This document shows positions 883-26,599 of a DNA stretch of 26,669 bases, one piece after another. The notes beneath the pieces were generated by a model. That model had not been told where the DNA came from and made no database searches. It was given only the letters and a program-made list of their open reading frames with translations. Source of the DNA: Oscillospiraceae bacterium (GTDB lineage Bacteria; Bacillota; Clostridia; Oscillospirales; Acutalibacteraceae); contig CADAVL010000010.1 of NCBI GenBank assembly GCA_902791335.1, forward strand, positions 1 through 26,669, read 5' to 3'. A program made the translations under genes and the position numbers. Within the stretch, counting starts at the first letter, position 1. Every line of letters begins with the position of its first letter.

Positions 883-914
883 TTCCCTGAGAAAGAACCG
901 ACAAGCAAATTGTA

Positions 915-1052
915 ACTTGCTCTGTCCTTTTGCCTGAGAGATTGGCAAGCAAAAATGCGTTGCCGTACACCTTCGGCGCCCTTAAAGATCAACTAAGGTT
1001 TCGGCGATCGTTTGCCGATATCGGTTGATCGGGGGACTCTCCAGAGAACCGT
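915..1052 (-). promoter_or_regulatory. Glycine riboswitch aptamer (Rfam glycine family) in the leader of the AGCS symporter gene
   Basis: The minus strand shows the conserved blocks in order: CTCTGGAGAG (revcomp of 1037-1046), GGCGCCGAAGG..GGCAA (revcomp of ~965-990), and CTCTCAGGCAAAAGGACAGAG (revcomp of 920-940). These match the remembered glycine-aptamer consensus. A terminator follows. Confidence 0.7.
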
Positions 1053-1071
1053 CTTTTAAAAAACGACAAAA

Positions 1072-11123: not shown

Positions 11124-11477
11124 TCATTTTGTCAGCCGGAAGCTTTCGTCCAGCAGCATTTTTATAAGCTTCGTTTCGGCCGAGCCGTCCAGCGCCACGG
11201 TGAGCCAGTGCTCCTTATTCATGTGATACGCCTTAAAAACGCCGACCTCATTTAAAAGCGAACCCAGGATCGCCGGTTCGCATTTCAGATTCATAATATC
11301 CATGGCACCGTCGTCCGAAAGCCCCAGTCGGCCTTTTTGAACGGTCATGCAAAGCGCGAACCACTTTTTATTTTCTTTGTGCCGAAACACCGCCGACCGC
11401 CCGTCCTTTTTGAAAGGATAGTCCGGCTTTACACCGTATTGTTTCAGTATGTAATCAAAGACTTCATTGCAGCTCAT
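11124..11477 (-). CDS. MmcQ/YjbR-family DNA-binding protein (~117 aa)
   Basis: SCNEVFDYILKQYGVKPDYPFKKDGRSAVFRHKENKKWFALCM...EHWLTVALDGS is typical of the family. I moved the start to the internal ATG at 11477, which has RBS GAAAGGAAG. The track start at 11507 has none. Confidence 0.7.
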   Translation of the reverse strand: MSCNEVFDYILKQYGVKPDYPFKKDGRSAVFRHKENKKWFALCMTVQKGRLGLSDDGAMDIMNLKCEPAILGSLLNEVGVFKAYHMNKEHWLTVALDGSAETKLIKMLLDESFRLTK

Positions 11478-11567
11478 TTTCGTTCTTCCTTTCGACACGG
11501 CCGACATCTAAAAATTTTCTGTCTTTTCTTTGCATATTTGTTCACCCTTATTTTTTATAAAACATTT

Positions 11568-11670: not shown

Positions 11671-12774
11671 TTATTGCTGCCCCTTTAAAATACCGGTGAG
11701 CTGGCTCAAAACATCGGTGTTACCATTTAAATTGATGTTGCCGATATTGTCGCAGATGCGCTCAATGTATTCCAACTCCTTCAAACGATAAAGCGTTTTG
11801 TTTTCGTCCATTAATTTTGCGGTGTTCAATAAAGAACGGGTAGAGGCAACCTCCTCGCGGCGCGTGATCACGTTGGCCTGCGCGCGCTTTTCGGCCACCA
11901 GCACAGTGTTCATGATCTCGCGGATCTCACCGGGCAGAATAATATCCTTTACCCCTGCATCGGTAATTTCCACATAAAGCGCCTTTTCTTTCTCTTTGAG
12001 CTTTTGAAACACAAAATCCGACAGCTGGGATTTATTCATAAGAATTTCGTCCAGTTTGGCATTGCCCACGTATTCGCGCAATGCCAGCTGCGCTGCAATG
12101 TGCACCTGCTCCAAAAAATCGTCGATTTCCATGAAACATTTCACATAATCCGTCACGCGGTAATTGCAAACAAAATTGATCCGAATGGCAACCTTATCCT
12201 GCGTCAGGATTTCCTGACCGGTGATATTCATTCGTGTAAGCCTTGTATCCACAAAACCAACGGTGATCTTCGTGCCGTTATTCCAAAAATAATAAGTGCC
12301 GGCGTCAAGAATTTTTATGAATTTTTGATTAAAATAAAGCCGCGCTTTTCTGAATTGTGCAACCTCGATCTTTGTGTAAAAGTCGGTAGGAATTTCTGAA
12401 AAGATATATTCCGGCACGTCGTCCGACACTTCCGGAGACGAAATATCCAGAATTTTAAATGTGTGCTCCCGGGCGTCTGTCCAGAATGCGTATTTGCCGC
12501 GCGGCAGAATTGACGCAAAGCGGCCGTCCACAAAGTGCAGCGCCAGCTGGCAGTCGGCAACCTCAGTGACCGTTACATTCTGCGCAATTTCGGGATCGCG
12601 CAGCAAAACGTCCAGTGAGCAGCGCTCGGTGGAGATCGCCTCACCGGTATTCTGCACCTCGATTTCTTTTGCAAAGGAAGAACGGTATTTCCCGGGTCGG
12701 AGCATTTTTATGTATCTGCCGTTTTTAAAAAGTAAGCCTCTCTGATTTTCGTTGATAATAACTTTTTTCATCAT
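11671..12774 (-). CDS. SPFH/Band-7 (stomatin/flotillin-like) domain protein without an N-terminal TM segment, 367 aa
   Basis: INENQRGLLFKNGRY at the N-terminus and a C-terminal SPFH core (RINFVCNYRVTDYVK...AEKRAQANVITRREEVA). RBS GGAGGG precedes ATGATG. Confidence 0.75.
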   Translation of the reverse strand: MMKKVIINENQRGLLFKNGRYIKMLRPGKYRSSFAKEIEVQNTGEAISTERCSLDVLLRDPEIAQNVTVTEVADCQLALHFVDGRFASILPRGKYAFWTDAREHTFKILDISSPEVSDDVPEYIFSEIPTDFYTKIEVAQFRKARLYFNQKFIKILDAGTYYFWNNGTKITVGFVDTRLTRMNITGQEILTQDKVAIRINFVCNYRVTDYVKCFMEIDDFLEQVHIAAQLALREYVGNAKLDEILMNKSQLSDFVFQKLKEKEKALYVEITDAGVKDIILPGEIREIMNTVLVAEKRAQANVITRREEVASTRSLLNTAKLMDENKTLYRLKELEYIERICDNIGNINLNGNTDVLSQLTGILKGQQ

Positions 12775-13029
12775 CTTTTACCCTCCATAAAGAATTCTCC
12801 TCTGCAATCGCTCATGCGTTTTTTGCGGTCAAAAATTTAAGTGATTCGATCCTCTCGGCGGAAAGCGAGCTTTTGGCCGGGAGGCTTTATCACGGTATCC
12901 GTTTTTGAACAGGGCAAAAAGCGCATTGCCGAACGAAAAAAGGAAACGGTCCCTTTTTTTCTTCAGCCGAGCGATTGCAGCCTCAAATCCTGATTCTGGT
13001 GCCGCGCGTTTTGTCTTCGCGCGAGCTCG

Positions 13030-13095
13030 ATGTTTTGCCGGAGTCGAACCGGCGGTGACCAACCCTGAAAGGGTCAAATCGGGAGTTGAACCCGC
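13030..13095 (-). other. tRNA-like 3' fragments: two T-arm-like elements, the second being GCCGGTTCGACTCCGGC followed by an acceptor-like AAAACATC. No complete cloverleaf was found.
   Basis: Minus strand reads gagcGGGTTCAACTCCCGatttgaccctttcagggttggtcaccGCCGGTTCGACTCCGGCaaaacatc. The GGTTCGAnTCC box is the T-loop consensus. No matching 5' acceptor strand lies within ~100 nt. Confidence 0.35.
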
Positions 13096-13125
13096 TCTGT
13101 AAAAGCTTTAAAAAGCTTTTACAGA
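13096..13125. repeat. Perfect 30-bp palindrome TCTGTAAAAGCTTT-AA-AAAGCTTTTACAGA, directly abutting the tRNA-like fragment
   Basis: 14-bp arms with a 2-bp centre. No U-tract follows on either strand, so it is more likely a protein-binding or recombination site than a terminator. Confidence 0.6.
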
Positions 13126-13304
13126 CTACCTGAAACTGTGTCAAGCGATTCTTTCGGCATACACGTTGGCAGCGCCTTGTGCACCGCAGTGAATTTTTTA
13201 AAACACCCGCTCGAAGGAACCTTGACGCGTATATTTTACCGTAAGAATTTTCCAATATCACGGAAAAAAAGCTGCGAGAACGCGAATGCTTTCAACAAAA
13301 TACT

Positions 13305-13336
13305 TAAAAAGCCGCAAATTTTTTCAGTCTGCGGCA
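13305..13336 (-). terminator. Intrinsic terminator of the WYL operon. Minus strand reads GCCGCAGACTGAAAAAATTTGCGGC then TTTTT.
   Basis: GCCGCA/TGCGGC stem plus a U-tract on the minus strand, ~110 nt downstream of the WYL gene stop. Confidence 0.5.
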
Positions 13337-13446
13337 ATCTCAAAAAAATGTCGGTTCGCGCTTTCGGCCGAAAACAGAAAAGAGTTGCAAACTTTCCAGG
13401 CTGTCGAGAAAATCAAAGAAAAAGCTGCGAGCGCTATATCAAGCGT

Positions 13447-14349
13447 TCACAGCTTTTGTTGCCTTTTTAAGCGGTCGATGATAAGATTTCGGAATTCCGG
13501 CGGTTCGGTCACCTCCACCATGGGACCAAAACTCAAAATTCGGATCACCAGCTCCGTTTCATCGAATTTGTTATATTTTATAAAAAGGGAATATTTCTTT
13601 TCGCCGATCTTTTCCACCCGCTTTTCAAAGTGTGCAAAATGGAGCAGCGTTCGCTCCAGTGCGTTGCGGTCGTCATACACCAGCAAGGTTACGGTTTCTT
13701 TGGATTCTATCGGGTTTGGCGCGGCCGGTATTTCGGCGGCGTCGCATTTGTCGCACGAGAGAATGCGCGCAAGATTGATAATGCTGCCGCAACGGCGGTC
13801 GGTGCCGATCAGGCGGAACTTATCGTCCTTTTCGGAGTATTCAAGGCTCTTTGGCGCCACCGTCATCGAAACGGTGCGACCCGAACGGTTCACCGCCCGA
13901 ATTTTCAAAAGTCGGTTTTGGGAGAGCGCGGACAGAATCGTTCTGAAATTTTTGATGTAAGCTTCATCGCAAAACGGGTCACCGTCGCTGTATTGGTCGT
14001 AGATGCAGTAATCCTCCATAGTAAACAGCGGCTCTACGTCCCGAAGCGCCTCAAAATCCACGTCGAAAAGCTTTACCTTTGGGTCTTGTGAGATCGCCTT
14101 TAACCATTGCTTTTGTACCGTCGAAAGCGGCATGGTCGGCGTATGTTTCAGCGGCGTTGTAAGGTTTTTATGCATAAGTTGCCATTTTTCGCTTTTCAGC
14201 GCCGGCAGAATGGTCAAAACACTTTCCGAAAAAGCGTTTTCAAGCACGATCTTTTCCAAAATCCTTTCGTTGCGGCGGCCCGAGAGCAGGCTTTCAATAA
14301 TTTTTGCCACCGTGTGATAGTAAGCGGAGTAAATCTCGTTGAATATCAT
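13447..14349 (-). CDS. WYL-domain transcriptional regulator (HTH-WYL-WCX architecture), 300 aa
   Basis: WYL-like core LKIRAVNRSGRTVSMTVAPKSLEYSEKDDKFRLIGTDRRCGSIINLARILS. WCX-like C-terminus VTLLVYDDRNALERTLLHFAHFEKRV...LVIRILSFGPMVEVTEPPEFRNLIIDRL. It overlaps the upstream gene by 4 bp. Confidence 0.7.
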   Translation of the reverse strand: MIFNEIYSAYYHTVAKIIESLLSGRRNERILEKIVLENAFSESVLTILPALKSEKWQLMHKNLTTPLKHTPTMPLSTVQKQWLKAISQDPKVKLFDVDFEALRDVEPLFTMEDYCIYDQYSDGDPFCDEAYIKNFRTILSALSQNRLLKIRAVNRSGRTVSMTVAPKSLEYSEKDDKFRLIGTDRRCGSIINLARILSCDKCDAAEIPAAPNPIESKETVTLLVYDDRNALERTLLHFAHFEKRVEKIGEKKYSLFIKYNKFDETELVIRILSFGPMVEVTEPPEFRNLIIDRLKRQQKL

Positions 14350-15614
14350 GTTTCCGCCTCCTCAATGCCATATAAACGATACATTCTTTTAAGATCGTCT
14401 TCAAACCGTTTTTGAACCGCTTTGTTGGAAAAGCGCAACGACGTAATCCTGCAAATAAAGGTTCTGACCCACGGGGTGATCTCGCCCGAATCATAAACGT
14501 CGGCAGAAAACCGATAGGTGTTCTCGTCAAGCTTTTTCACCGTGCCCACGCGTTTTTCGCGCTCCAGGCGGTTTACAATGTATTGCTCGTTTTTTTGCAC
14601 TTTGACCGTAAATTCAACGTGCTCGGTGCGCTTGCCTTTTTCGCCGCATTTTCCGCCGTATTTTCCTGCGGTAACACCCCACATTTTCTTTTTCATTTCG
14701 GAAAGTGTTGCCCTCAGCACGTCAAAATTTGGCGCAGGTTCTTCCAATTTTACATCCAAAAGATAATCGACCCGAAAGGACTTGATCGCATTAAGCTGAG
14801 GGCAGTAAGCCATCAGGTGCTGGCGCCCGTTTTGCACGCTTAAAAAGATTCTTAATGGAACCACCCGATTTTTTCGCAGCTCACTATTGTGACGGCTGAG
14901 ATTCAAAAACGAAACAAAGCGCTTTTGGTGCATTGCATCAAAAAGGGTAGCTAGAATATCGCTGTCAATGGCGGACGTGATATAGTGGTGTTTAAAGCTG
15001 AAACAATCTGCCGAAGTTTTTTCCTGTTGATCCAGCAAAAATGAGCCGATCACGCCGCAGGGCGCTGTTTCGGAAAAGAAATTCAGAACGTCGGTTGAAA
15101 GGGAAACAGACGGGTCGTTTGCCCTGCGGTAAAGCAGCTTTTTGCCGGACTTTTCGGCCGTGATCAACCCAAGCGAAATATATTCCTGCAGCTTTTTCCG
15201 AACGGTCGATTCGTCAAAGAGCATCGGTTTTCGGAACTTCGCCAAATAGCCGTCGATCTTTTCCAAAATCTCTGTCAGCGGCAAAGAAACGTCGGGCGAA
15301 AAAAGAAGATCCAGCAAAATAAAATGCAGGGTAATATCCTTATCGGTAAAGCTTTTGGATTTCAGCGCCTTAAAAAACGGATTGTGCGCGCACGCGCGGC
15401 TGTCTACCGAGAGAAACACGTTTTTGCCCTCAGGCGTGCGGACGTAGCCCATATAATTGCCAAGCCAGCTTTCAATCCTGCGGCGCTCGTCGTCATAGGA
15501 ACGGGCGCTTTTTTTGTTGTATTCGTCCCGACTTTTAAAGCCGTAAACATAAAATTCGCGCATATAGCTCCGAATTTTTTCAAAATTCTTGATCAGCTCA
15601 TTGTAAGACGACAC
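14346..15614 (-). CDS. WYL-domain regulator with an extended N-terminus (~100 aa extension, then wHTH, WYL, WCX), 422 aa
   Basis: wHTH-like LTEILEKIDGYLAKFRKPMLFDESTVRKKLQEYISLGLI. WYL core VVPLRIFLSVQNGRQHLMAYCPQLNAIKSFRVDYLLDV. WCX-like YRFSADVYDSGEITPWVRTFICRITSL. GTG start with RBS AAAGGAGGG. Confidence 0.65.
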   Translation of the reverse strand: MSSYNELIKNFEKIRSYMREFYVYGFKSRDEYNKKSARSYDDERRRIESWLGNYMGYVRTPEGKNVFLSVDSRACAHNPFFKALKSKSFTDKDITLHFILLDLLFSPDVSLPLTEILEKIDGYLAKFRKPMLFDESTVRKKLQEYISLGLITAEKSGKKLLYRRANDPSVSLSTDVLNFFSETAPCGVIGSFLLDQQEKTSADCFSFKHHYITSAIDSDILATLFDAMHQKRFVSFLNLSRHNSELRKNRVVPLRIFLSVQNGRQHLMAYCPQLNAIKSFRVDYLLDVKLEEPAPNFDVLRATLSEMKKKMWGVTAGKYGGKCGEKGKRTEHVEFTVKVQKNEQYIVNRLEREKRVGTVKKLDENTYRFSADVYDSGEITPWVRTFICRITSLRFSNKAVQKRFEDDLKRMYRLYGIEEAET

Positions 15615-16098: not shown

Positions 16099-16280
16099 CT
16101 AATTGGAAGGTGTAAAAGAACACACAAGACAGTAATCCCATTCAGCAAGCAGTTTCCTGTCCGTTGTGGCTAAATCATTGTATCCTGCAAGAACCGCCCT
16201 GTCCGTACAAACCGGGCATACTGTTCCTTTTACACGAACATTGATATTTCTTTCTTAGGCTTTGCAGCAGCTTTTGCCAT
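16099..16280 (-). pseudogene. Frameshifted N-terminal remnant of a DUF4379 zinc-ribbon-repeat protein, paralogous to 25355-26599
   Basis: RBS GGAGGT plus ATG gives MAKAAAKPKKEISMFV, then a stop. A +1 frame continues as NVRVKGTVCPVCTDRAVLAGYNDLATTDRKLLAEWDY. That matches the repeat unit of the intact paralog (VKGTSCPVCAERQVLRGHNDLATTDYMLCKEWDY). Confidence 0.55.
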
Positions 16281-16616
16281 TTGTATTACCTCCACATTCT
16301 ATTAGCTACTCGAATACAAGGTCGAATACAAGTATATCCTATCATTATAAGTGTCCAATAAAACGGACTTATGATTCGTCTTCGGGAAGAACATCCATAA
16401 AGATCAGCTGATTCTGGTATACTGCCGCAGCGGTAATCGGAGTAAGCAGGCATCTAAAAAAATGGTGAAATTGGGCTACACCAATATCATTGAGATCGGT
16501 GGAATTAATAGTTGGCCCGGTGAAACAGTCACCGGCGATAAGTGATAAAATCACAGAACAAGGAATGACTACCGGATATAATAAAGCTATAAAAAAGAAA
16601 ACAGGAGGACTTAAAT

Positions 16617-16922: not shown

Positions 16923-16934
16923 GGAGGTGCAATG

Positions 16935-17255
16935 ATGAGCTTCTTCGATTTCCTGAAAGGCCCTGACATCAATCAGGGTGTCAAAGAGTATAGCGCCACG
17001 GATAGCGCAGTCCTGCTGGATGTTCGCACCCCCGACGAATACCGGCAGGGGCATATCCCCGGCAGTAAAAATGTTCCTTTGCAGTCCATTAGCAAAGTGG
17101 CCGGCATGATTGACAATAAATCTACCCCCATTTTTGTTCATTGTCTCAGCGGTGCAAGAAGCCGTCAGGCAACTGCTATTTTGCAGCAAATGGGTTATAC
17201 TAACGTGAAAAACATAGGCGGAATTTCCGCTTATACAGGAAAGGTAGAACGATAA
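16935..17255 (+). CDS. Single-domain rhodanese (sulfurtransferase)
   Basis: Active-site loop VHCLSGARS. ~106 aa. RBS AAGGAGG. ATG at 16932 or 16935. Confidence 0.85.
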   Translation: MSFFDFLKGPDINQGVKEYSATDSAVLLDVRTPDEYRQGHIPGSKNVPLQSISKVAGMIDNKSTPIFVHCLSGARSRQATAILQQMGYTNVKNIGGISAYTGKVER

Positions 17256-17256
17256 T

Positions 17257-18947
17257 ATGAAAGTTGTCATTGTAGGCGGTGTGGCAGGCGGTGCTACCGC
17301 TGCCGCCCGTATTCGCAGACTGAATGAGCAGGCAGAAATCGTAGTGTTTGAGCGGTCGGGATATATCTCCTATGCCAACTGTGGTCTGCCGTACTATATC
17401 GGTGATGTGATTACCGATCCCGAAGAACTGACCCTACAAACACCGGAAAGCTTCTTCTCCCGGTTCCTTGTAAACATGAAGGTGCGCCATGAGGTCACGG
17501 CTATCCATCCCGAAAAAAAGAAGTTACCGTGAAAAATCTGGAAACCGGTGAGGAGTTCGAGGAGAGCTATGACAAGCTGATTCTCTCTCCCGGAGCCAAG
17601 CCTACCCAGCCCCGGCTTCCCGGTATAGGAATCGGCAAGCTATTTACGTTGCGTACTGTGGAGGACACCTTCCGCATCAAAGACTACATTAACAAAAACC
17701 ATCCTAAATCCGCTGTACTGGCAGGCGGTGGCTTCATTGGATTGGAGCTGGCAGAGAACCTGCGAGAGTTGGGGATGGATGTCACCATTGTCCAGCGTCC
17801 AAAACAGCTTATGAATCCCTTTGATGCCGATATGGCTTCTTTCATCCATAATGAAATGCGTAGGGCTGGTGTAAAGCTGGCACTTGGTCATACCGTAGAA
17901 GGGTTTGAGGAAAGGGACGGCGGCGTGGATGTGCTGCTGAAAGAAGAACAGCCTCTCCATGCAGATATGGTAATCCTGGCCATTGGTGTTTCTCCCGAAA
18001 CCACCCTTGCAAAGGATGCCGGGTTGGAGCTGGGCATTAAAGGAAGTATTGTGGTCAATGACCGAATGGAAACCTCCATTTCCGACATCTATGCCGTGGG
18101 CGATGCGGTGCAGGTGAAGCACTTCGTCACCGGGAAGGATGCTCTGATCTCTTTGGCTGGCCCTGCCAATAAACAGGGACGAATCGCTGCGGACAACATC
18201 TGTGGCGGAGACAGCCATTATACCGGCTCCCAAGGCAGCAGTGTCATCAAGATCTTCGGCATGACTGCCGCTACTACCGGCGTAAATGAGACCAACGCCA
18301 GAAAAACAGGGCTGGATGTTGATACGGTTATCCTGTCGCCCATGAGCCATGCAGGTTACTACCCCGGCGGGAAAGTCATGACAATGAAGGTGGTCTTTGA
18401 AAAGGCGACTTATCGCCTGCTGGGTGCGCAGATCGTAGGCTATGAAGGTGTGGATAAGCGCATTGATGTGCTGGCCACCGCTATCCGGGCCGGAATGAAA
18501 GCCACGGAACTGAAGGATCTGGATCTGGCCTACGCACCGCCTTATTCTTCTGCGAAAGATCCGGTAAATATGGCTGGCTTTATGGTTGAGAATATCGCAA
18601 ACGGTGTTCTGAAACAATGGCATCTGGAAGATGCAGATCGCCTTCCTCGTGACGGAAGCGTAACTCTGTTGGACACCCGCACTGTGAAAGAATTCGCACA
18701 CGGACACATTGACGGCTTCTTTAACATCCCGGTGGACGAGCTGCGGGAGCGGCTGGGTGAGCTGGACAAGCGTAAGCCTGTCTACGTCATCTGTCAGAGC
18801 GGTCTGCGCAGCTACATTGCCTGTCGTATCCTGGCCGGAAACGGCTTTGACTGCTATAACTTCTCCGGCGGCTTTCGGTTCTATGATGCTGTGACCAATG
18901 ATCGCTGTCTCATTGAATCGGCTACGGCCTGCGGAATGGACAAATAA
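17257..18947 (+). CDS. cdr: CoA-disulfide / CoA-persulfide reductase with C-terminal rhodanese domain (CoADR-RHD). It is interrupted by a -1 frameshift in an A7 run at 17513-17519. This is either a pseudogene or a sequencing error.
   Basis: ORF 17257-17532 carries the FAD motif VVIVGGVAGGATAAARI and the redox Cys (SYANCGLPY). ORF 17529-18947 continues the pyridine-nucleotide-disulfide oxidoreductase fold and ends with a rhodanese domain (VYVICQSGLRS). Adding one A in the run restores IHPEKKEVTVKNLETGEEF. The combined length of ~563 aa is the expected size. Confidence 0.85.
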
Positions 18948-23639: not shown

Positions 23640-24017
23640 ATGAGTGCAAAGTTTTATATCTGCCGTCATTGCGGCAATCTGGTTGGTATGATTCACGACG
23701 CAGGTGTTCCCATGATGTGTTGTGGTCAGAAAATGGAGACTCTTGAGCCTAACACCGTAGAAGCCAGCGGCGAAAAGCATCTGCCTGCTGTTACTGTTGA
23801 AGATGGTGCAATCCATGTCAATGTGGGTTCTGTAGATCATCCTATGCTTCCGGAGCATTTCATCGAGTGGATCTATGTCCAGACCGAAAACGGTGGTCAG
23901 CGTAAGGTTTTGAAGCCCGGTGACGAACCCCATGTCACCTTCTTCCTGGGAGACGATAAAGCAGCAGCTGTCTATGCTTATTGCAATCTCCACGGCTTGT
24001 GGAAAACTGAAATTTAA
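23640..24017 (+). CDS. dfx: Desulfoferrodoxin (2Fe superoxide reductase)
   Basis: N-terminal desulforedoxin-like CRHCGN...MCCGQ. C-terminal SOR ligands EKHLP...H...CNLHGLW. RBS GGAGG is followed 8 nt later by ATG at 23640 (the track start at 23604 has no RBS). Confidence 0.85.
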   Translation: MSAKFYICRHCGNLVGMIHDAGVPMMCCGQKMETLEPNTVEASGEKHLPAVTVEDGAIHVNVGSVDHPMLPEHFIEWIYVQTENGGQRKVLKPGDEPHVTFFLGDDKAAAVYAYCNLHGLWKTEI

Positions 24018-24034
24018 CATGGAGGTTCTTGTAA

Positions 24035-24544
24035 ATGAACGAAAAAGTACATGCGCTTATCAATCAACAGATAAATAAGGAATTCTATTCCGCATACCTT
24101 TATCTCAATTTTTCAAACTATTTCGAGGAAGTCGGGCTTGACGGCTTTGCCAACTGGTATAAAATTCAGGCTCAGGAAGAGCGTGACCACGCCATGCTTT
24201 TCTATCAGTACCTGCAAAACGAAAACCAGAAGGTAACGCTTGAAGCCATTGACAAGCCTAATCTGAATGCAGCTTGCCATATGGATGTTTTGAAGGCGGG
24301 TCTTGAGCACGAAAAATATGTAACCTCGCTGATTAATGATATCTATAGTGAGGCTTACGAAGCAAGGGATTTCCGTACCATGCAGTTCCTCGATTGGTTT
24401 GTGAAAGAACAAGGTGAAGAAGAAACCAATGCAAATAATTTGATTTCCAAAATGGAACTCTTTGGCTCCGATCCCAAAAGCTTGTATATGCTCAATCAGG
24501 AATTGGCAGCACGAATTTACTCTGCTCCTTCTTTGGTTCTTTAA
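24035..24544 (+). CDS. ftn: Bacterial non-haem ferritin
   Basis: LINQQINKEFYSAYLYLNFSNYF...QAQEERDHAMLFYQYL ferroxidase-centre helices. 169 aa. RBS GGAGG. Confidence 0.9.
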   Translation: MNEKVHALINQQINKEFYSAYLYLNFSNYFEEVGLDGFANWYKIQAQEERDHAMLFYQYLQNENQKVTLEAIDKPNLNAACHMDVLKAGLEHEKYVTSLINDIYSEAYEARDFRTMQFLDWFVKEQGEEETNANNLISKMELFGSDPKSLYMLNQELAARIYSAPSLVL

Positions 24545-24582
24545 TCACTATAGCCTATAGATGATGGAAGTATAAAAGGCAG

Positions 24583-24619
24583 TATGCCGCCTGTCGGTTT
24601 TCCGGCAGGCGTTTTTTTA
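24583..24619 (+). terminator. Intrinsic terminator after ferritin: GCCGCCTGTCGG/CCGGCAGGC stem followed by GTTTTTTT
   Basis: Stem at 24585-24594 and 24602-24610 with one mismatch. U-tract at 24611-24618. Confidence 0.6.
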
Positions 24620-24692
24620 CAGAGGATGCCTATGATTTAAGATAATGCCAGCTTTATCTATTTACATCGCATAGATGAAGTAGAACTGAACA

Positions 24693-24935
24693 TTGAGGAT
24701 AAGGCAGCAATATATCCGTTATAATAAAAAGCAAAACAGTTACTCGTGGGAATATCAACCCAAAGGATATATGGAGTTACCCGCCAAAATCAAATGGGTC
24801 AAAGAACAGGGATTATGGCAACAGGTTCGTAAATATTATTTATACAAGAAGAACACAAACGATAACCCTAATAAACATTCAAGAACAATCTTTGCAGAAA
24901 CCATTCACGAAATATGGCAGAAGAATAAAGATTAA
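24693..24935 (+). CDS. Hypothetical Lys/Tyr-rich small ORF (80 aa) between two terminators. The coding status is doubtful.
   Basis: Open frame only. The start is non-ATG (TTG) and RBS support is weak. An internal ATG (MELPAKIKW) is preceded by AAAGGA with short spacing. I could not recognise a domain. Confidence 0.2.
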   Translation: MRIRQQYIRYNKKQNSYSWEYQPKGYMELPAKIKWVKEQGLWQQVRKYYLYKKNTNDNPNKHSRTIFAETIHEIWQKNKD

Positions 24936-24939
24936 AAAA

Positions 24940-24967
24940 GCAGGTATCAAATTACTTTGATACCTGC
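24940..24967. terminator. 12-bp perfect hairpin GCAGGTATCAAA-TTAC-TTTGATACCTGC. A U6 tract follows on the minus strand.
   Basis: On the minus strand it would terminate transcripts that read from the DUF4379 gene (25355-26599) through repeat copy B. Confidence 0.6.
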
Positions 24968-25092
24968 TAAAACTTTAATAAGTTCTCATATTGTGTCAGG
25001 ATAATTTCTGAAGCCGTGGGTAAATCGTGGGTAAAATGCCTTTTTTGACACTTTCAAAACCACGAAAACCCGCATAAATAAAGGGTTTTATT

Positions 25093-25270
25093 AGTCCAAC
25101 GATTTCATTGTGGGGATTCGGGCAGAAACCGGGAATTATCGGGAATTATCAAGCATTTACGGGCATTTTACAAAAATAAAACCACACGAACAAGGTCGTA
25201 TCGAGAATTATCAAGAATTCTGTAATGAGTATGTTGGTGTAACTTTTGGTGTAAGGTGTAACCTTGATAC
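25093..25270 (+). repeat. Repeat copy B (~170 bp), about 90% identical to 15827-15990, with the same TATCAAG-like motif array
   Basis: Reads ...GGGAATTATCGGGAATTATCAAGCATTTACGGGCATTTTACAAAAATAAAACCACACGAACAAGGTCGTATCGAGAATTATCAAGAATTCTG...GGTGTAACTTTTGGTGTAAGGTGTAACCTTGATAC. Confidence 0.8.
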
Positions 25271-25354
25271 ATTGAATTGCCCACCAAAGAAACGCATCTC
25301 TTTTATTTGGCATATAAGCATTATACACCAAAAGTCCGAGAAAATCAAGTGATG

Positions 25355-26599
25355 TCACTGTTGTGTAATATCTTTCCATTTGAAAAAAGCCTTTTTGCAT
25401 TTCTCAATATCTTCTTGACTGTTTGAAAGGATATATATGTTTTTCTTTTGAAATATCTTTTTGATTTTATCCGCAAGTTCATAGTGATTTTTTGCTGAAA
25501 CCTCAAAATATGATATTCCGTTCATTTTACATAAGTGCTCTTTAACCGCCCTTTCATTTTCGTTTCCCGACCTTTTATCTATGCGCTCAATAACAGAAAA
25601 CATATCAGGGATATATGTTTCCACCGGCAGTCCGATTATATTATCGTCAAATGTGACTACTCTCATATTATACTGTTTTGCATATAACGAAACCAAAAGC
25701 TGAACAAGCAAGCTGTCAAATTCAGATTCGCAAACCGAGCAGGTTTTGCCTTCGTGAGTTCGCTCACATATTTTTGCATTCCAACTGTGGCCGTACCTGC
25801 ATAACCACCACGCACGATTATGTGAATTTCTCGAAATCTCGGTTGGTGACACTTTGTTTTTTTCGTAGTCCCATTCCTTACATAGCATATAATCTGTCGT
25901 GGCTAAATCATTATGTCCTCTCAATACTTGTCGTTCAGCGCAAACCGGACAAGAAGTCCCTTTTACACGGGCACTGATTACAGACTTCCACTCATTGCCA
26001 CACGCCTTACACTTCCACCAAACATTCTTCGTGGACTTTGCATTAACCTGATCAGGGGAAAGAGGAAAGTTATGTTCAGACCATTCTTCTGCAATCGTAG
26101 GATGCGTGGTGGCAAGATCATTAAATCCTTTTAGTAATTTAATACCGCTGCAATAAGGGCATTGACTGCCTCCGGCTCTCGTAGATATCAAAGTGTACCA
26201 TTCATGTCCGAGACTGCATTTCCACCAAACTTTTTTATTCTTAAATGCCGTAACCATATTCGGGTACAATGGATAATTTCGCTCCGACCATTCTGCGGCA
26301 AGCTTTGGAAATCGTGAAGCAAGATCGTTAAATCCGGGCAGAACAATGTTGTGTAAGCAATAAGGACAGCCTGTGCCATTCACTCGGCTCTTTACTTCCG
26401 CCGCCCATTCGTGACCGCACTTTCCGTGCCATAATACTTTCTTATGTGATCCGGCAGAAAGCTCTGTTGGTTTTATTTTATTCTTCGACGACCATTCCTC
26501 TGCTAACGAGGGATGTGTCGTATTTAGATCGTTGACTCCTGCTATGACTCTTGCGCCGGAGCATATAGGACATATCGCAATCGTTTTGCAGTTCGACAC
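25355..26599 (-). CDS. Multi-repeat zinc-ribbon (DUF4379-like) protein. It has four tandem ~55-aa treble-clef repeats and a C-terminal ~120-aa domain of unknown (possibly nuclease-like) fold. 414 aa.
   Basis: Repeating unit NDLATTHPxxAEEWSxxNxxxPxxVxxxSxKKVWWKCxxGHEWxxxISxRxxGxxCPYC. GTG start with RBS AAGGAGG. The region looks, by eye, low in GC relative to the first half of the window. Confidence 0.75.
   Translation of the reverse strand: MSNCKTIAICPICSGARVIAGVNDLNTTHPSLAEEWSSKNKIKPTELSAGSHKKVLWHGKCGHEWAAEVKSRVNGTGCPYCLHNIVLPGFNDLASRFPKLAAEWSERNYPLYPNMVTAFKNKKVWWKCSLGHEWYTLISTRAGGSQCPYCSGIKLLKGFNDLATTHPTIAEEWSEHNFPLSPDQVNAKSTKNVWWKCKACGNEWKSVISARVKGTSCPVCAERQVLRGHNDLATTDYMLCKEWDYEKNKVSPTEISRNSHNRAWWLCRYGHSWNAKICERTHEGKTCSVCESEFDSLLVQLLVSLYAKQYNMRVVTFDDNIIGLPVETYIPDMFSVIERIDKRSGNENERAVKEHLCKMNGISYFEVSAKNHYELADKIKKIFQKKNIYILSNSQEDIEKCKKAFFKWKDITQQ

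Follow-up and report, generated by a model that had tools for sequence, protein, structure and literature searches.

Two adjacent genes that encode WYL-domain proteins raise the question of what such a pair controls. The genes are on the minus strand of the window, which is the whole stretch of 26,669 nucleotides of Oscillospiraceae DNA that was analysed. The original prediction described them as a PafBC-like tandem that might govern a DNA-damage regulon or a phage-defence island, and considered their target unknown. PafBC is the actinobacterial heterodimeric WYL activator of the DNA-damage response. RtcR, a CARF-AAA+-HTH protein, is the sigma54 activator of the rtcBA or rsr-yrlBA-rtcBA RNA repair operon. 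RtcB repair operons are widespread, and to our knowledge their regulation is understood for the RtcR/sigma54 type only.

Results

Pairing of the two genes

The window was compared with 80 genome loci of 17 kb each and at least 120 metagenome stretches, and the hosts were Clostridia MAGs. The two genes, called A and B here, and their domains are as follows.

14346..15614, minus strand: ORF A, the larger WYL subunit, 422 aa (ORF list, Pfam, AF2, Foldseek)
15345-15614, minus strand: family-specific N-terminal domain of A, aa 1-90 (conservation, AF2)
15120-15344, minus strand: predicted winged HTH of A, aa 91-165 (AF2 secondary structure)
14736-14963, minus strand: WYL barrel of A, aa 218-293 (Pfam, AF2)
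14373-14624, minus strand: WCX of A, aa 331-414 (AF2)
13447..14349, minus strand: ORF B, the smaller WYL subunit, 300 aa (ORF list, Pfam, PADLOC, AF2, Foldseek)
aa 1-55 of B, minus strand: wingless three-helix N-terminal bundle, followed by a linker (AF2)
13747-13965, minus strand: WYL barrel of B, aa 129-201 (PADLOC, AF2)
13453-13701, minus strand: WCX of B, aa 217-299 (Pfam, AF2)

The two reading frames are placed as originally described, with an overlap of 4 bp in which the end of A (GAA ACA TGA) and the start of B (ATG ATA TTC) have the ATGA at 14346-14349 in common. The ribosome-binding site of B, GAGGAGG, is located within the 3′ end of A. B followed A in 77 of the 77 informative loci, which are those with room downstream, and this answers the question, raised with the original prediction, of whether orthologs always pair; the cargo that follows them is the RNA-repair cassette described below. 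The A/B junctions overlapped in 148 of 152 cases (by 4 nt in 123 of 152), and there are natural A-B fusion proteins, 756-855 aa long, whose alignments to the whole of B reach E ~1e-55. The strict co-occurrence, the 4-nt overlap, the fusions and the fact that PafBC-RNAP is the best structural match for both proteins indicate that the pair almost certainly works as a single unit, and the same observations uphold the PafBC-like tandem. The gene pairing, the overlap and the fusion proteins suggest that this unit would be a heteromer. When A was compared with B by hhalign, weak similarity was observed in the WCX/C-terminal half (E 0.0016) and between the wHTH of A and the N-terminus of B (E 0.02), and a common ancestry of the two proteins is plausible.

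Domain structure of A and B

WYL and WCX features, as in HTH-WYL-WCX proteins, are present in both A and B. In A, the Pfam WYL family PF13280 matched aa 220-289 at E=6e-9, which is over the gathering score, and it matched 29 of 29 members of the A family; on the PADLOC WYL model A scored 1.1e-15. The Pfam WCX match was weak in the window protein (0.22), and 26 of 29 family members matched at E up to 1, the best at 7e-4. In B, WCX PF25583 was over gathering (E=1.6e-5), while the WYL match was weak with Pfam (0.087) and strong with the PADLOC WYL model (8.6e-11). The domain searches proposed earlier as a check thus agree that these are WYL proteins, with PF13280 in A, the PADLOC model in B and Foldseek matches to WYL regulators.

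The AF2 model of B had a pLDDT of 84, with a value of ~90 in the barrel at aa 148-201, and the overall confidence of the A model was low (pLDDT 60). The confidence was also low for the N-terminal region of A. The top Foldseek matches of the A model were PafBC-RNAP (9fnd), DriD, BrxR, CapW and WYL1, and those of the B model were PafBC-RNAP and DriD on top and also BrxR, CapW and WYL1, with E values from 1e-9 to 1e-6 over the two proteins. Both models align to full-length PafBC and DriD.

The predicted winged helix of A (aa 91-165) has the element order H-S-H-H-S-S with a pLDDT of 75-89 in the AF2 model, and weak PaaX-like Pfam matches were found in 21 of 29 A family members. This wHTH is not N-terminal because ~90 aa stand before it. 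The N-terminal bundle of B has no wing and a hydrophobic third helix, and it aligns weakly to the wHTH of A (E ~0.02). The claim that both proteins are wHTH-WYL-WCX therefore holds for the WYL-WCX part of both; a wHTH is predicted in A, and a winged HTH could not be demonstrated in B.

The extra N-terminal region that had been ascribed to A is real. The start M-S-S-Y and a GGAGG ribosome-binding site are kept in 74 loci, and the first ~90-100 aa are the best-conserved region of the protein (0.85 compared with 0.67-0.74 in the other domains). This high conservation fits an invariant DNA target. The domain has no relative in Pfam or the PDB; Pfam searches with 29 diverse N-domain sequences returned scattered single-member noise only, and sequence-profile searches of the PDB with A, B and the N-domain of A gave no match (for the A and B profiles at E up to 1, PafBC included). 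The region had not been recognised in the original prediction either, and the profile and Pfam searches led to the same outcome. NCBIfam contains no family for A or B, and no CARF or AAA+ match was found in either protein with Pfam and NCBIfam.

The downstream RNA-repair cassette

The following features are located downstream of the pair.

12976..13231, minus strand: structured leader ncRNA of the cassette (covariation, conservation, literature match)
13134-13231, minus strand: 5′ domain of the leader RNA (RNAalifold)
13080-13094, minus strand: T-arm-like hairpin 1, CGGG-TTCAACT-CCCG (T-loop motif)
13038-13052, minus strand: T-arm-like hairpin 2, CCGG-TTCGACT-CCGG (T-loop motif)
11671..12774, minus strand: SPFH/Band-7 protein, 367 aa, no obvious transmembrane segment, first protein gene of the cassette (Pfam Band_7 3.8e-27)
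11124..11507, minus strand: MmcQ/YjbR-family protein, 127 aa, at the position of RtcB in relatives (Pfam YjbR 1.1e-20)

The leader RNA is kept in position and structure across 35 SPFH-type loci, and RNAalifold showed compensatory changes in 6 of 18 pairs of the 5′ domain and in 11 of 15 pairs of the T-arm domain. ARAGORN found no tRNA in the window, and the Rfam searches, at gathering and at E up to 10, gave nothing meaningful in 12700-13500; with the Rfam tRNA model, scores of 30-73 bits were obtained for the leader genes of DUF2828-type loci. The element agrees with the published description of the 'band-7-associated tRNA-like' RNA, a predicted b7a-tRNA found beside Band-7 and RtcB (Burroughs and Aravind 2016, as summarised in bioRxiv 10.1101/312249). 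The original prediction had a candidate for a tRNA-like att scar here. A tRNA-like element with T-arm-like hairpins does exist, and the tRNA/att-scar reading was rejected because the element belongs to a covarying leader RNA that keeps its position and structure in ~35 species.

In relatives, the cassette consists of the tRNA-like RNA or RNAs, an SPFH protein or a DUF2828 Ro-like protein, RtcB and at times RlaP, in this order (RtcB 3e-58; DUF2828 together with DUF7788; RlaP 4e-88). SPFH is downstream of the pair in 40 of the 80 genome loci (52-76% identity), mostly followed by RtcB, and 53 of 80 related loci contain RtcB. As far as its summary of the modules goes, bioRxiv 10.1101/312249 describes Band-7/b7a-tRNA/RtcB and Ro/TROVE/Y-RNA/RtcB modules into which this cassette fits with its SPFH, tRNA-like ncRNA, RtcB and RlaP, and the Ro-like vWA protein with tRNA-like genes is an alternative module there as it is here. 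The window copy differs from the described modules in having Band-7/SPFH and the tRNA-like ncRNA without RtcB. No RtcB (by tblastn), DUF2828 or RlaP was found in the window, RtcB was also absent from the 95%-identical relative, and the window cassette is reduced to the ncRNA, SPFH and YjbR. Reading frames after SPFH in other loci without RtcB look unrelated or spurious. YjbR, which had been described as DNA-damage-associated, is a lineage-specific neighbour and no conserved partner: apart from the 95%-identical relative L081, one locus of the 80 has it.

The sole conserved neighbours of the pair, in 80 genome loci and 120 metagenome stretches, are components of RNA repair. The rest of the window consists of ordinary metabolic genes, and PADLOC gave no match among the neighbours. 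A prophage or mobile origin was rejected, as only 1 relative was found in IMG/VR and the window neighbours are metabolic. The conserved context is an RtcB-centred RNA-repair cassette, and it supports neither the DNA-damage regulon nor the phage-defence island that had been proposed for the pair.

The promoter box between the pair and the cassette

The region between B and the leader RNA contains the following features.

13414..13454, minus strand: terminator-like hairpin including the stop codon of B, AGCTGTGAACGC / AGCGCTCGCAGCT, then a T-rich run (read from sequence)
13259..13277, minus strand: near-invariant 19-bp box TCGCAGCTTTTTTTCCGTG, candidate operator or activator site of A-B, at ~-51 to -33 of the cassette promoter (conservation)
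13256-13261, minus strand: weak -35-like GTGATA (promoter scan)
13233..13238, minus strand: TAAAAT, the -10 hexamer of the cassette promoter, with a spacing of 20 bp to the box upstream (promoter scan)

The window contains one exact match to the box, with 0.04 expected by chance. An exact 17-mer of the box was found in 66 of the 80 genome loci, nearly always as a single copy (two in L029) and always on the strand of A-B. An independent metagenome scan with the 19-mer resulted in more than 120 matches; B ends ~20 nt upstream in 87 of 106, and the box is followed by SPFH, DUF2828 or RtcB in 53 of 58. In 165 of 187 promoters, 20 nt separate the box from the -10, and the cassette promoter is without a good -35. 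The target of the pair is thus no longer without a candidate: this near-invariant box, a strong one, would link A-B to the cassette downstream.

The box usually starts ~20 nt past the B stop codon, and it is kept even where it is detached from that stop or where the left arm of the terminator is missing. The hairpin at 13414..13454 of the window is a degenerate copy of the hairpin that is joined to the promoter box in most relatives, in which AGCTGTGAACTT-N5-AGTTCGCAGCT-T7 abuts CCGTG. The A-B terminator has its T-run and right arm in the first half of the box, and this role, together with the C-terminal codons of B, could account for some of the box conservation. The possibility that the box is a mere terminator of A-B was rejected as a full explanation, as its core is invariant without the left arm or without an adjacent B.

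On this evidence, we consider it fairly probable that A and B together make up a heteromeric WYL-WCX transcription factor, similar to PafBC, which serves as a dedicated local regulator of the RNA-repair cassette just downstream. The pair is probably an activator. In promoters that lack a -35, the sites of DriD and PafBC take its position and keep a constant distance to the -10.

It is also conceivable, though rather unlikely, that A-B is a repressor of the CapW/BrxR type that binds at the same box, covers the -35/UP region of an extended -10 promoter with activity of its own, and is freed when its WYL domains bind nucleic-acid fragments. The -10 is near consensus (TAAAAT or TATAAT) in 119 of 187 promoters and carries a TG extension in 88 of 187, next to a 4/6 -35-like GTGAAA or GTGATA; about half of the promoters have a TG-extended, near-consensus -10 and may be active with no activator, a point in favour of repression. 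At most loci an 11-bp inverted repeat has the box as its right arm, and such a palindrome could be the operator of a dimer, but the core of the box is asymmetric and is kept without the left arm in many loci. CapW and BrxR, which have the same fold, are repressors, but they autoregulate from sites ahead of their own genes, whereas no such site is conserved ahead of A: no common motif was found in 74 upstream regions, and the box is present ahead of A in rare variants only (L117 and L180). The best structural matches of A-B are the activators PafBC and DriD, and their sites share the fixed-spacing geometry that overlaps the -35.

It is very improbable that the main role of A-B is other than transcriptional and that the pair serves the repair machinery as an RNA-binding accessory, much as the ssRNA binder WYL1 modulates Cas13d, with the box being a terminator-promoter unit read by a housekeeping or alternative sigma factor alone. 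WYL1 (6oaw) is among the fold matches, the WYL and WCX folds are typical of RNA binders, and B is without a convincing HTH, but in A a canonical winged helix is well predicted, with the pLDDT values given above, and is covered by the full-length alignments to DNA-bound DriD, PafBC and BrxR. Among the box-bearing cassettes, 19 of 106 (~18%) are without A-B directly upstream, some of them with unrelated genes at that place. This also counts against our main reading, since the pair need not be adjacent and another factor could be the reader of the box. An invariant 19-bp DNA box nevertheless needs a sequence-specific reader, and the location of the pair outside the cassette, ahead of the promoter and with a terminator between, is the layout of a regulator and not of an operon component.

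That A-B switches a defence island or, as a master regulator of the PafBC type, controls a LexA-independent DNA-damage regulon, with the SPFH/RtcB neighbourhood being incidental, is hardly credible: the tandem WYL pair with its PafBC-like fold, the nearby YjbR, the derivation of the PADLOC WYL models from CRISPR-associated proteins, and the induction of the Salmonella rtc operon in the SOS response that is mentioned in PMC9879122 would speak for it, but there are no conserved DNA-repair or defence genes near the pair and only RNA-repair components are conserved, YjbR is confined to one of the genome loci, kinship to PafB/PafC is absent at the sequence level, and the single copy of the box per 17-kb locus gives no sign of a dispersed regulon in the available sequence.

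Discussion

A-B, read as the local regulator of the cassette, can be compared with known regulators. As in PafBC, two tandem, diverged subunits of the HTH-WYL-WCX type almost certainly act as one unit, with natural single-chain fusions in some species, and the two HTH domains would have unequal roles. PafBC is the best Foldseek match of A and of B (PDB 6SJ9, 9FND), and both systems have an asymmetric DNA element at or near the -35 at a fixed distance to the -10. In contrast to this tandem two-subunit feature, orthology to PafB/PafC and a -26-motif regulon were not found. There is no detectable sequence homology, and the identity in structural alignments is 10-17%; the hosts are Clostridia and not Actinobacteria, and a Pup-proteasome context is missing. 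A has the additional conserved domain of ~90 aa, the HTH of B is wingless, the box is unrelated to the PafBC -26 motif, and the target would be one adjacent RNA-repair cassette instead of a dispersed DNA-repair regulon.

DriD shares the wHTH-linker-WYL-WCX fold (E ~1e-9), has a target site that overlaps the missing -35 at a constant distance to the -10, and is activated by single-stranded nucleic acid. It differs in that DriD of Caulobacter is a homodimer with an ssDNA ligand and a DNA-damage regulon, and has no extra N-terminal domain. CapW and BrxR have the fold in common with A-B and are likewise local regulators of one operon next to a conflict-related system, but they are homodimeric repressors on palindromic sites upstream of their own genes, and the CBASS, BREX or other defence neighbours that characterise them are absent around A-B.

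RtcR is similar in being a dedicated regulator whose gene lies beside an RtcB-centred operon, in which a Ro-like or scaffold protein and genes for Y-RNAs or tRNA-like RNAs are also found, and in having a sensor domain of a class that is predicted or shown to bind nucleic-acid fragments. The two differ in architecture, as A-B is heteromeric and WYL-WCX while RtcR is CARF-AAA+, and neither A nor B has the CARF, sigma54 AAA+ and HTH combination of the RtcR type; the promoter of the A-B cassette is of the sigma70 type with a -10, not of the sigma54 type. Because the pair is directly upstream of an invariant promoter box that drives an RNA-repair cassette, across hundreds of gut Clostridia, A-B probably corresponds, in Firmicutes, to the repair-operon regulator RtcR rather than to a DNA-damage or phage-defence switch. 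By analogy, it would be a functional analogue of RtcR in bacteria without the CARF-sigma54 regulator. According to the Aravind group, some CARF/WYL transcription factors regulate RNA repair pathways.

We infer the DNA binding of A-B, its ligand and the sign of its regulation, and propose the following course of events. The asymmetric box would be read by A with its winged helix, its strongly conserved N-terminal domain or both. B, with its degenerate HTH, would provide the second WYL-WCX half and possibly a contact to RNA polymerase. Damage-derived single-stranded nucleic acid may bind in the WYL/WCX groove and switch the complex on, with a cleaved tRNA or another RNA fragment as the likeliest ligand. 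Activation would then take place from the -35 position in the manner of PafBC and DriD.

RtcR senses damaged tRNA fragments, as described in PMC7790460. The ligands characterised to date for WYL domains in transcription factors are ssDNA (PafBC, DriD and CapW) or c-di-GMP, and none is RNA. It is a possible but doubtful extension of our proposal that a heteromeric WYL sensor evolved a second time, independently, in A-B, which would also be the first WYL transcription factor with damaged RNA as its physiological ligand, and in which a previously undescribed N-terminal domain that contacts DNA or RNAP reads an asymmetric promoter box. The candidate ligands would be tRNA halves or fragments with 2′,3′-cyclic phosphate ends, or the cassette's own tRNA-like RNA once cleaved. 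If this is true, A-B would be the Firmicute solution to the problem that is solved by RtcR in Proteobacteria, and could open the way to the function of the repair modules of the SPFH/tRNA-like and DUF2828/tRNA-like types, which are abundant in gut Clostridia.

Gut and rumen Clostridia carry the system in at least 440 species-level genomes, and it is compact and testable, with two small proteins, one 19-bp box and one promoter. It would offer a second natural heteromeric, sometimes fused WYL factor for comparison with PafBC, and in annotation, regulators with a predictable target may take the place of thousands of entries that read 'WYL domain-containing protein'. Its study could show how Gram-positive anaerobes turn on RNA repair, whether RNA damage is sensed by a WYL domain, and what role the SPFH and Ro-like modules play with their tRNA-like RNAs.

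Conservation of the WYL gene pair as a unit

Comparison of the window with its relatives shows what appears, from sequence, to be an obligate two-subunit WYL-WCX protein encoded upstream of a box promoter that would drive an RNA-repair cassette, with a terminator between them. The two subunits are encoded as follows:

14346-15614, minus strand: ORF A, the larger subunit, GTG start, 422 aa
13447-14349, minus strand: ORF B, the smaller subunit, ATG start, 300 aa

The tandem, overlapping WYL pair of the original prediction is real, since the 3′ end of A (...GAA ACA TGA) and the 5′ end of B (ATG ATA TTC) have the tetranucleotide ATGA in common, and both proteins gave domain matches. WYL was found in A (Pfam PF13280, 6e-9, aa 220-289) and WCX in B (PF25583, 1.6e-5), both above the gathering score; the reciprocal domains scored weakly, and a single PADLOC WYL model matched A at 1.1e-15 and B at 8.6e-11. 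Neither protein had a match in NCBIfam. The Shine-Dalgarno sequence of B, GAGGAGG, lies inside the 3′ end of A.

At 90% identity the A family comprises more than 7,000 clusters and the B family more than 6,200, from metagenome-assembled genomes of Oscillospiraceae, Acutalibacteraceae, Ruminococcus and other Clostridia, with "WYL domain-containing protein" as the best name of their members; a relative of A is encoded in 440 species-level GTDB genomes. The orthologs always pair: among 80 loci fetched, B directly followed A in all 77 with room downstream. The stop of A and the start of B overlapped by 4 nt in 123 of 152 loci and to some extent in 148. Four representative clusters (P0297, P0325, P0354 and P0357) are single-chain A-B fusions, 756-855 aa long, whose low-complexity linkers measure roughly 20-130 aa, and BLASTP comparison of two of them gave full-length A, an evolved linker and full-length B (E about 1e-55). 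Arthrobacter has a comparable natural PafB-PafC fusion. Together, the adjacency, overlaps and fusions are strong comparative evidence that A-B would form a heteromeric unit.

Predicted folds of A and B

The sequences of A and B are barely alignable with each other, and profiles of the two families matched no solved structure. The AlphaFold2 model of B (mean pLDDT 84) has three N-terminal helices (aa 2-52) without a beta-wing, the third of them hydrophobic, followed by a long linker, a WYL barrel (aa 148-201) and WCX (aa 217-299). The model of A (mean pLDDT 60 overall) contains a canonical winged helix (aa 91-165, pLDDT 75-89), a WYL barrel (aa 218-293) and WCX (aa 331-414), and its first 90 residues are poorly predicted as three helices and a beta-hairpin. 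Foldseek searches of the PDB returned the same list for both proteins, with RNA-polymerase-bound PafBC (9fnd) on top, followed by DriD, BrxR, CapW, PafBC 6sj9 and WYL1 (E 1e-9 to 1e-4). Of the wHTH-WYL-WCX architecture originally predicted for both proteins, WYL-WCX is borne out in both and a winged helix is predicted in A, but the HTH of B appears degenerate and wingless.

The extra N-terminal domain of A is genuine. Its start (M-S-S-Y) and ribosome binding site are kept in 74 loci, and no other part of A is as well conserved: its mean column conservation is 0.85, versus 0.67-0.74 for the other domains. An exhaustive search with aa 1-95 against 1.84 billion representatives gave 671 clusters; in the best 150 of these, the domain is at or near the N-terminus of proteins of about 400-420 aa or of truncated fragments. 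A diverse profile of the domain had no match in PDB or Pfam.

A promoter element downstream of B

Alignment of the spacers between B and the SPFH gene revealed a near-invariant element, AGTTCGCAGCTTTTTTTCCGTG-N20-TAAAAT. Its exact 17-mer, GCAGCTTTTTTTCCGTG, was found in 66 of 80 loci, on the same strand as A-B in every case, typically about 23 nt past the stop of B and almost always once per locus of about 17 kb (twice in locus L029). The window has one match at up to 3 mismatches, where 0.04 would be expected by chance:

13259-13277, minus strand: 19-bp promoter box

In most loci, the left part of the box also belongs to a hairpin, as its right arm and T-run, and the opposite arm includes the stop codon of B, so the box doubles as the A-B terminator. 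However, the core TCGCAGCTTTTTTTCCGTG is just as invariant in loci that lack the left arm or have B hundreds of bases away, such as the window, L034, L037, L038, L042, L054, L056, L078 and several metagenome contigs, which argues that the terminator role alone is insufficient to explain the conservation.

In 165 of 187 promoters, CCGTG and the -10 hexamer are separated by exactly 20 nt. With this fixed spacing, the box would span about -51 to -33 and overlap the expected -35 site, where the sequence (GTGAAA or GTGATA) is at best a 4-of-6 match. Of the 187 promoters, 119 have TAAAAT or TATAAT as the -10, and 88 carry a TG extension.

As an independent test, metagenome contigs were scanned for the exact 19-mer, which gave at least 120 stretches. 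Among the matches listed, a B homologue ended about 20 nt before the box in 87 of the 106 that extend 400 nt or more upstream, and SPFH, DUF2828 or RtcB followed in 53 of 58 with at least 2.5 kb downstream. The 19 exceptions among the 106 were variant layouts or had unrelated upstream genes, e.g. LeuRS-like. Among the variant layouts, the box precedes A itself in L117 and L180, suggestive of autoregulation of these operons, and in L092 the cargo is upstream of A. The original prediction left the target of the pair unknown; the box and its fixed promoter geometry now point to the downstream cassette as a strong candidate.

The RNA-repair cassette and its leader RNA

The survey of what follows the box gave RNA-repair components, in the order 0-4 tRNA-like genes, SPFH or a DUF2828+DUF7788 protein, RtcB and, in some loci, RlaP. 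The cytosolic SPFH protein named in the original prediction is a conserved neighbour, present in 40 of 80 loci with higher identity than A or B. Its alternative, in 28 loci, is a Ro/TROVE-like vWA protein of 490-500 aa (DUF2828+DUF7788), and some loci have both modules. The RtcB RNA ligase (402 aa; PF01139, 3e-58) was found in 53 loci, directly behind the box promoter in L077 and L079, and the RlaP nucleotidyltransferase (PF10127, 4e-88) in 6. A conserved ORF of about 150 aa with the motif ...IEYIGIYELNWL.DDNLLDCEGIIVAF... lies between DUF2828 and RtcB in L042, L051 and L055.

The tRNA-like genes of DUF2828-type loci have odd anticodons and Rfam tRNA-model scores of 30-73 bits. Between the box and DUF2828, the leaders of L005, L009, L010, L016, L042, L045, L051 and L055 hold arrays of one to four tRNA or tRNA-like genes, whose anticodons (aat, ata, aaa, tat, cga, tcg) are atypical of bacteria; the WYL-linked promoter apparently transcribes these arrays. 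In the window, ARAGORN and Rfam did not call the tRNA-like element, which contains:

13080-13094, minus strand: T-loop motif 1, CGGG-TTCAACT-CCCG
13038-13052, minus strand: T-loop motif 2, CCGG-TTCGACT-CCGG

Both motifs are within a leader RNA, about 250 nt long, kept in all SPFH-type loci. RNAalifold folded its 5′ domain into 18 pairs, 6 with compensatory changes (e.g. AU to GC in 13 of 32 sequences), and its T-arm domain into 15 pairs, 11 with compensatory changes, around an invariant 7-nt loop, TTCGAAT. A "band-7-associated tRNA" was predicted beside Band-7 and RtcB (Burroughs and Aravind 2016, as relayed in bioRxiv 10.1101/312249), and the leader fits that description. The conservation, covariation and this fit rule out the integration (att) scar once proposed for the T-loops, and indicate instead a putative functional non-coding RNA of the cassette.

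The window's version and its surroundings

The window's cassette is intact for the box, spacing, -10, leader RNA and the SPFH gene, with a typical box-SPFH distance of about 485 nt:

11671-12774, minus strand: SPFH gene (Band_7, 3.8e-27)

The gap between B and the box (13278-13446, minus strand) has about 150 extra nt, versus about 20 nt in most relatives, and includes a degenerate second hairpin copy with right arm and T-run AGCGCTCGCAGCTTTTTCTTTG (13414-13435). A YjbR/MmcQ gene, otherwise found in just 1 of 80 loci, follows SPFH in place of RtcB, and no RtcB, DUF2828 or RlaP was found in the whole 26.7-kb window. L081, the relative with 95% identity, shares the A-B-Band_7-YjbR layout and the long spacer; L035, L054, L076 and L078 likewise have SPFH but no RtcB.

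A defence-island setting was not borne out. No defence island or prophage context surrounds the pair in the window, the other genes of which are metabolic (glycoside hydrolases, a branched-chain amino-acid transporter, a ZIP transporter, thioredoxin/rhodanese/CoA-disulfide reductase and Fe-hydrogenase-rubrerythrin), and an IMG/VR search gave one relative only.

Other features were also observed. A glycine riboswitch aptamer at 912-1054 (minus strand; RF00504, 51.9 bits, E 3.8e-8) is the sole Rfam match at gathering score in the window. The CoA-disulfide-reductase-like gene (Pyr_redox_2 and a C-terminal rhodanese) is split into 17257-17532 and 17529-18947 (plus strand) at the A-run GAAAAAAAGAAG; the ORFs correspond to positions 1-85 and 89-278 of the Pfam model, and the split is a frameshift from sequencing error, pseudogene formation or slippage. 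The gap of 1 kb that precedes A includes part of a DUF4379 treble-clef zinc-finger repeat (16132-16275, minus strand), which is probably a gene remnant, being 58% identical to the repeats of an intact 414-aa DUF4379 gene at 25355-26599 (minus strand). A rhodanese-like fragment just upstream of the thioredoxin gene (16396-16524, plus strand) shares 44% identity with the rhodanese gene at 16932-17255, which hints that parts of the thioredoxin-rhodanese-reductase cluster were locally duplicated and have decayed. The stretch at 24000-26000, which holds the DUF4379 repeat gene, has low GC (0.35-0.38 versus about 0.50 elsewhere) and may have been acquired horizontally.

Proposed mechanism and significance

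The WYL-WCX modules of PafBC, DriD and CapW bind single-stranded nucleic acid and allosterically set the position of the HTH. PafBC reads a promoter motif with one HTH and contacts polymerase with the other, and the DriD site is over a missing -35 at a constant distance to -10. RtcR, the known rtc-operon regulator, is turned on by damaged tRNA fragments, according to PMC7790460. On these precedents, A-B is proposed to be the local regulator of the RNA-repair cassette, probably triggered by cleaved RNA. Activation from the -35 position would be its most likely mode of action. The winged helix of A, its exceptionally conserved N-terminal domain, or both, would recognize the box, which is asymmetric and invariant with fixed promoter geometry. 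B would complete the ligand groove with a second half and perhaps contact RNA polymerase. The main rival is that A-B is a repressor with the same partners, which is favored by the near-consensus, often TG-extended -10. A global, PafBC-like role in DNA damage is less likely, and so is a role as a non-transcriptional RNA chaperone of the WYL1 type, a protein also among the structural matches. A-B resembles PafBC as a heteromeric WYL factor, but has no sequence relationship to PafB or PafC, and box, hosts and regulon all differ.

As a proposed dedicated rtc regulator, A-B would be functionally similar to RtcR but lacks CARF, AAA+ and sigma54. A-B is therefore a member of neither PafBC nor RtcR; its place is in the broad HTH-WYL-WCX class, from which it departs in the extra N-terminal domain of A and the degenerate HTH of B. 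It has been stated in general terms that some CARF/WYL transcription factors control RNA-repair pathways (PMC9503650). No description of the paired family, fusions, box or promoter geometry was found in the literature searched, the scope of which did not extend to Burroughs and Aravind 2016. The A-B system is clean, abundant and directly testable, if not astonishing to a specialist, and it touches on the control of RtcB operons outside Proteobacteria and on whether RNA damage is sensed by WYL domains.
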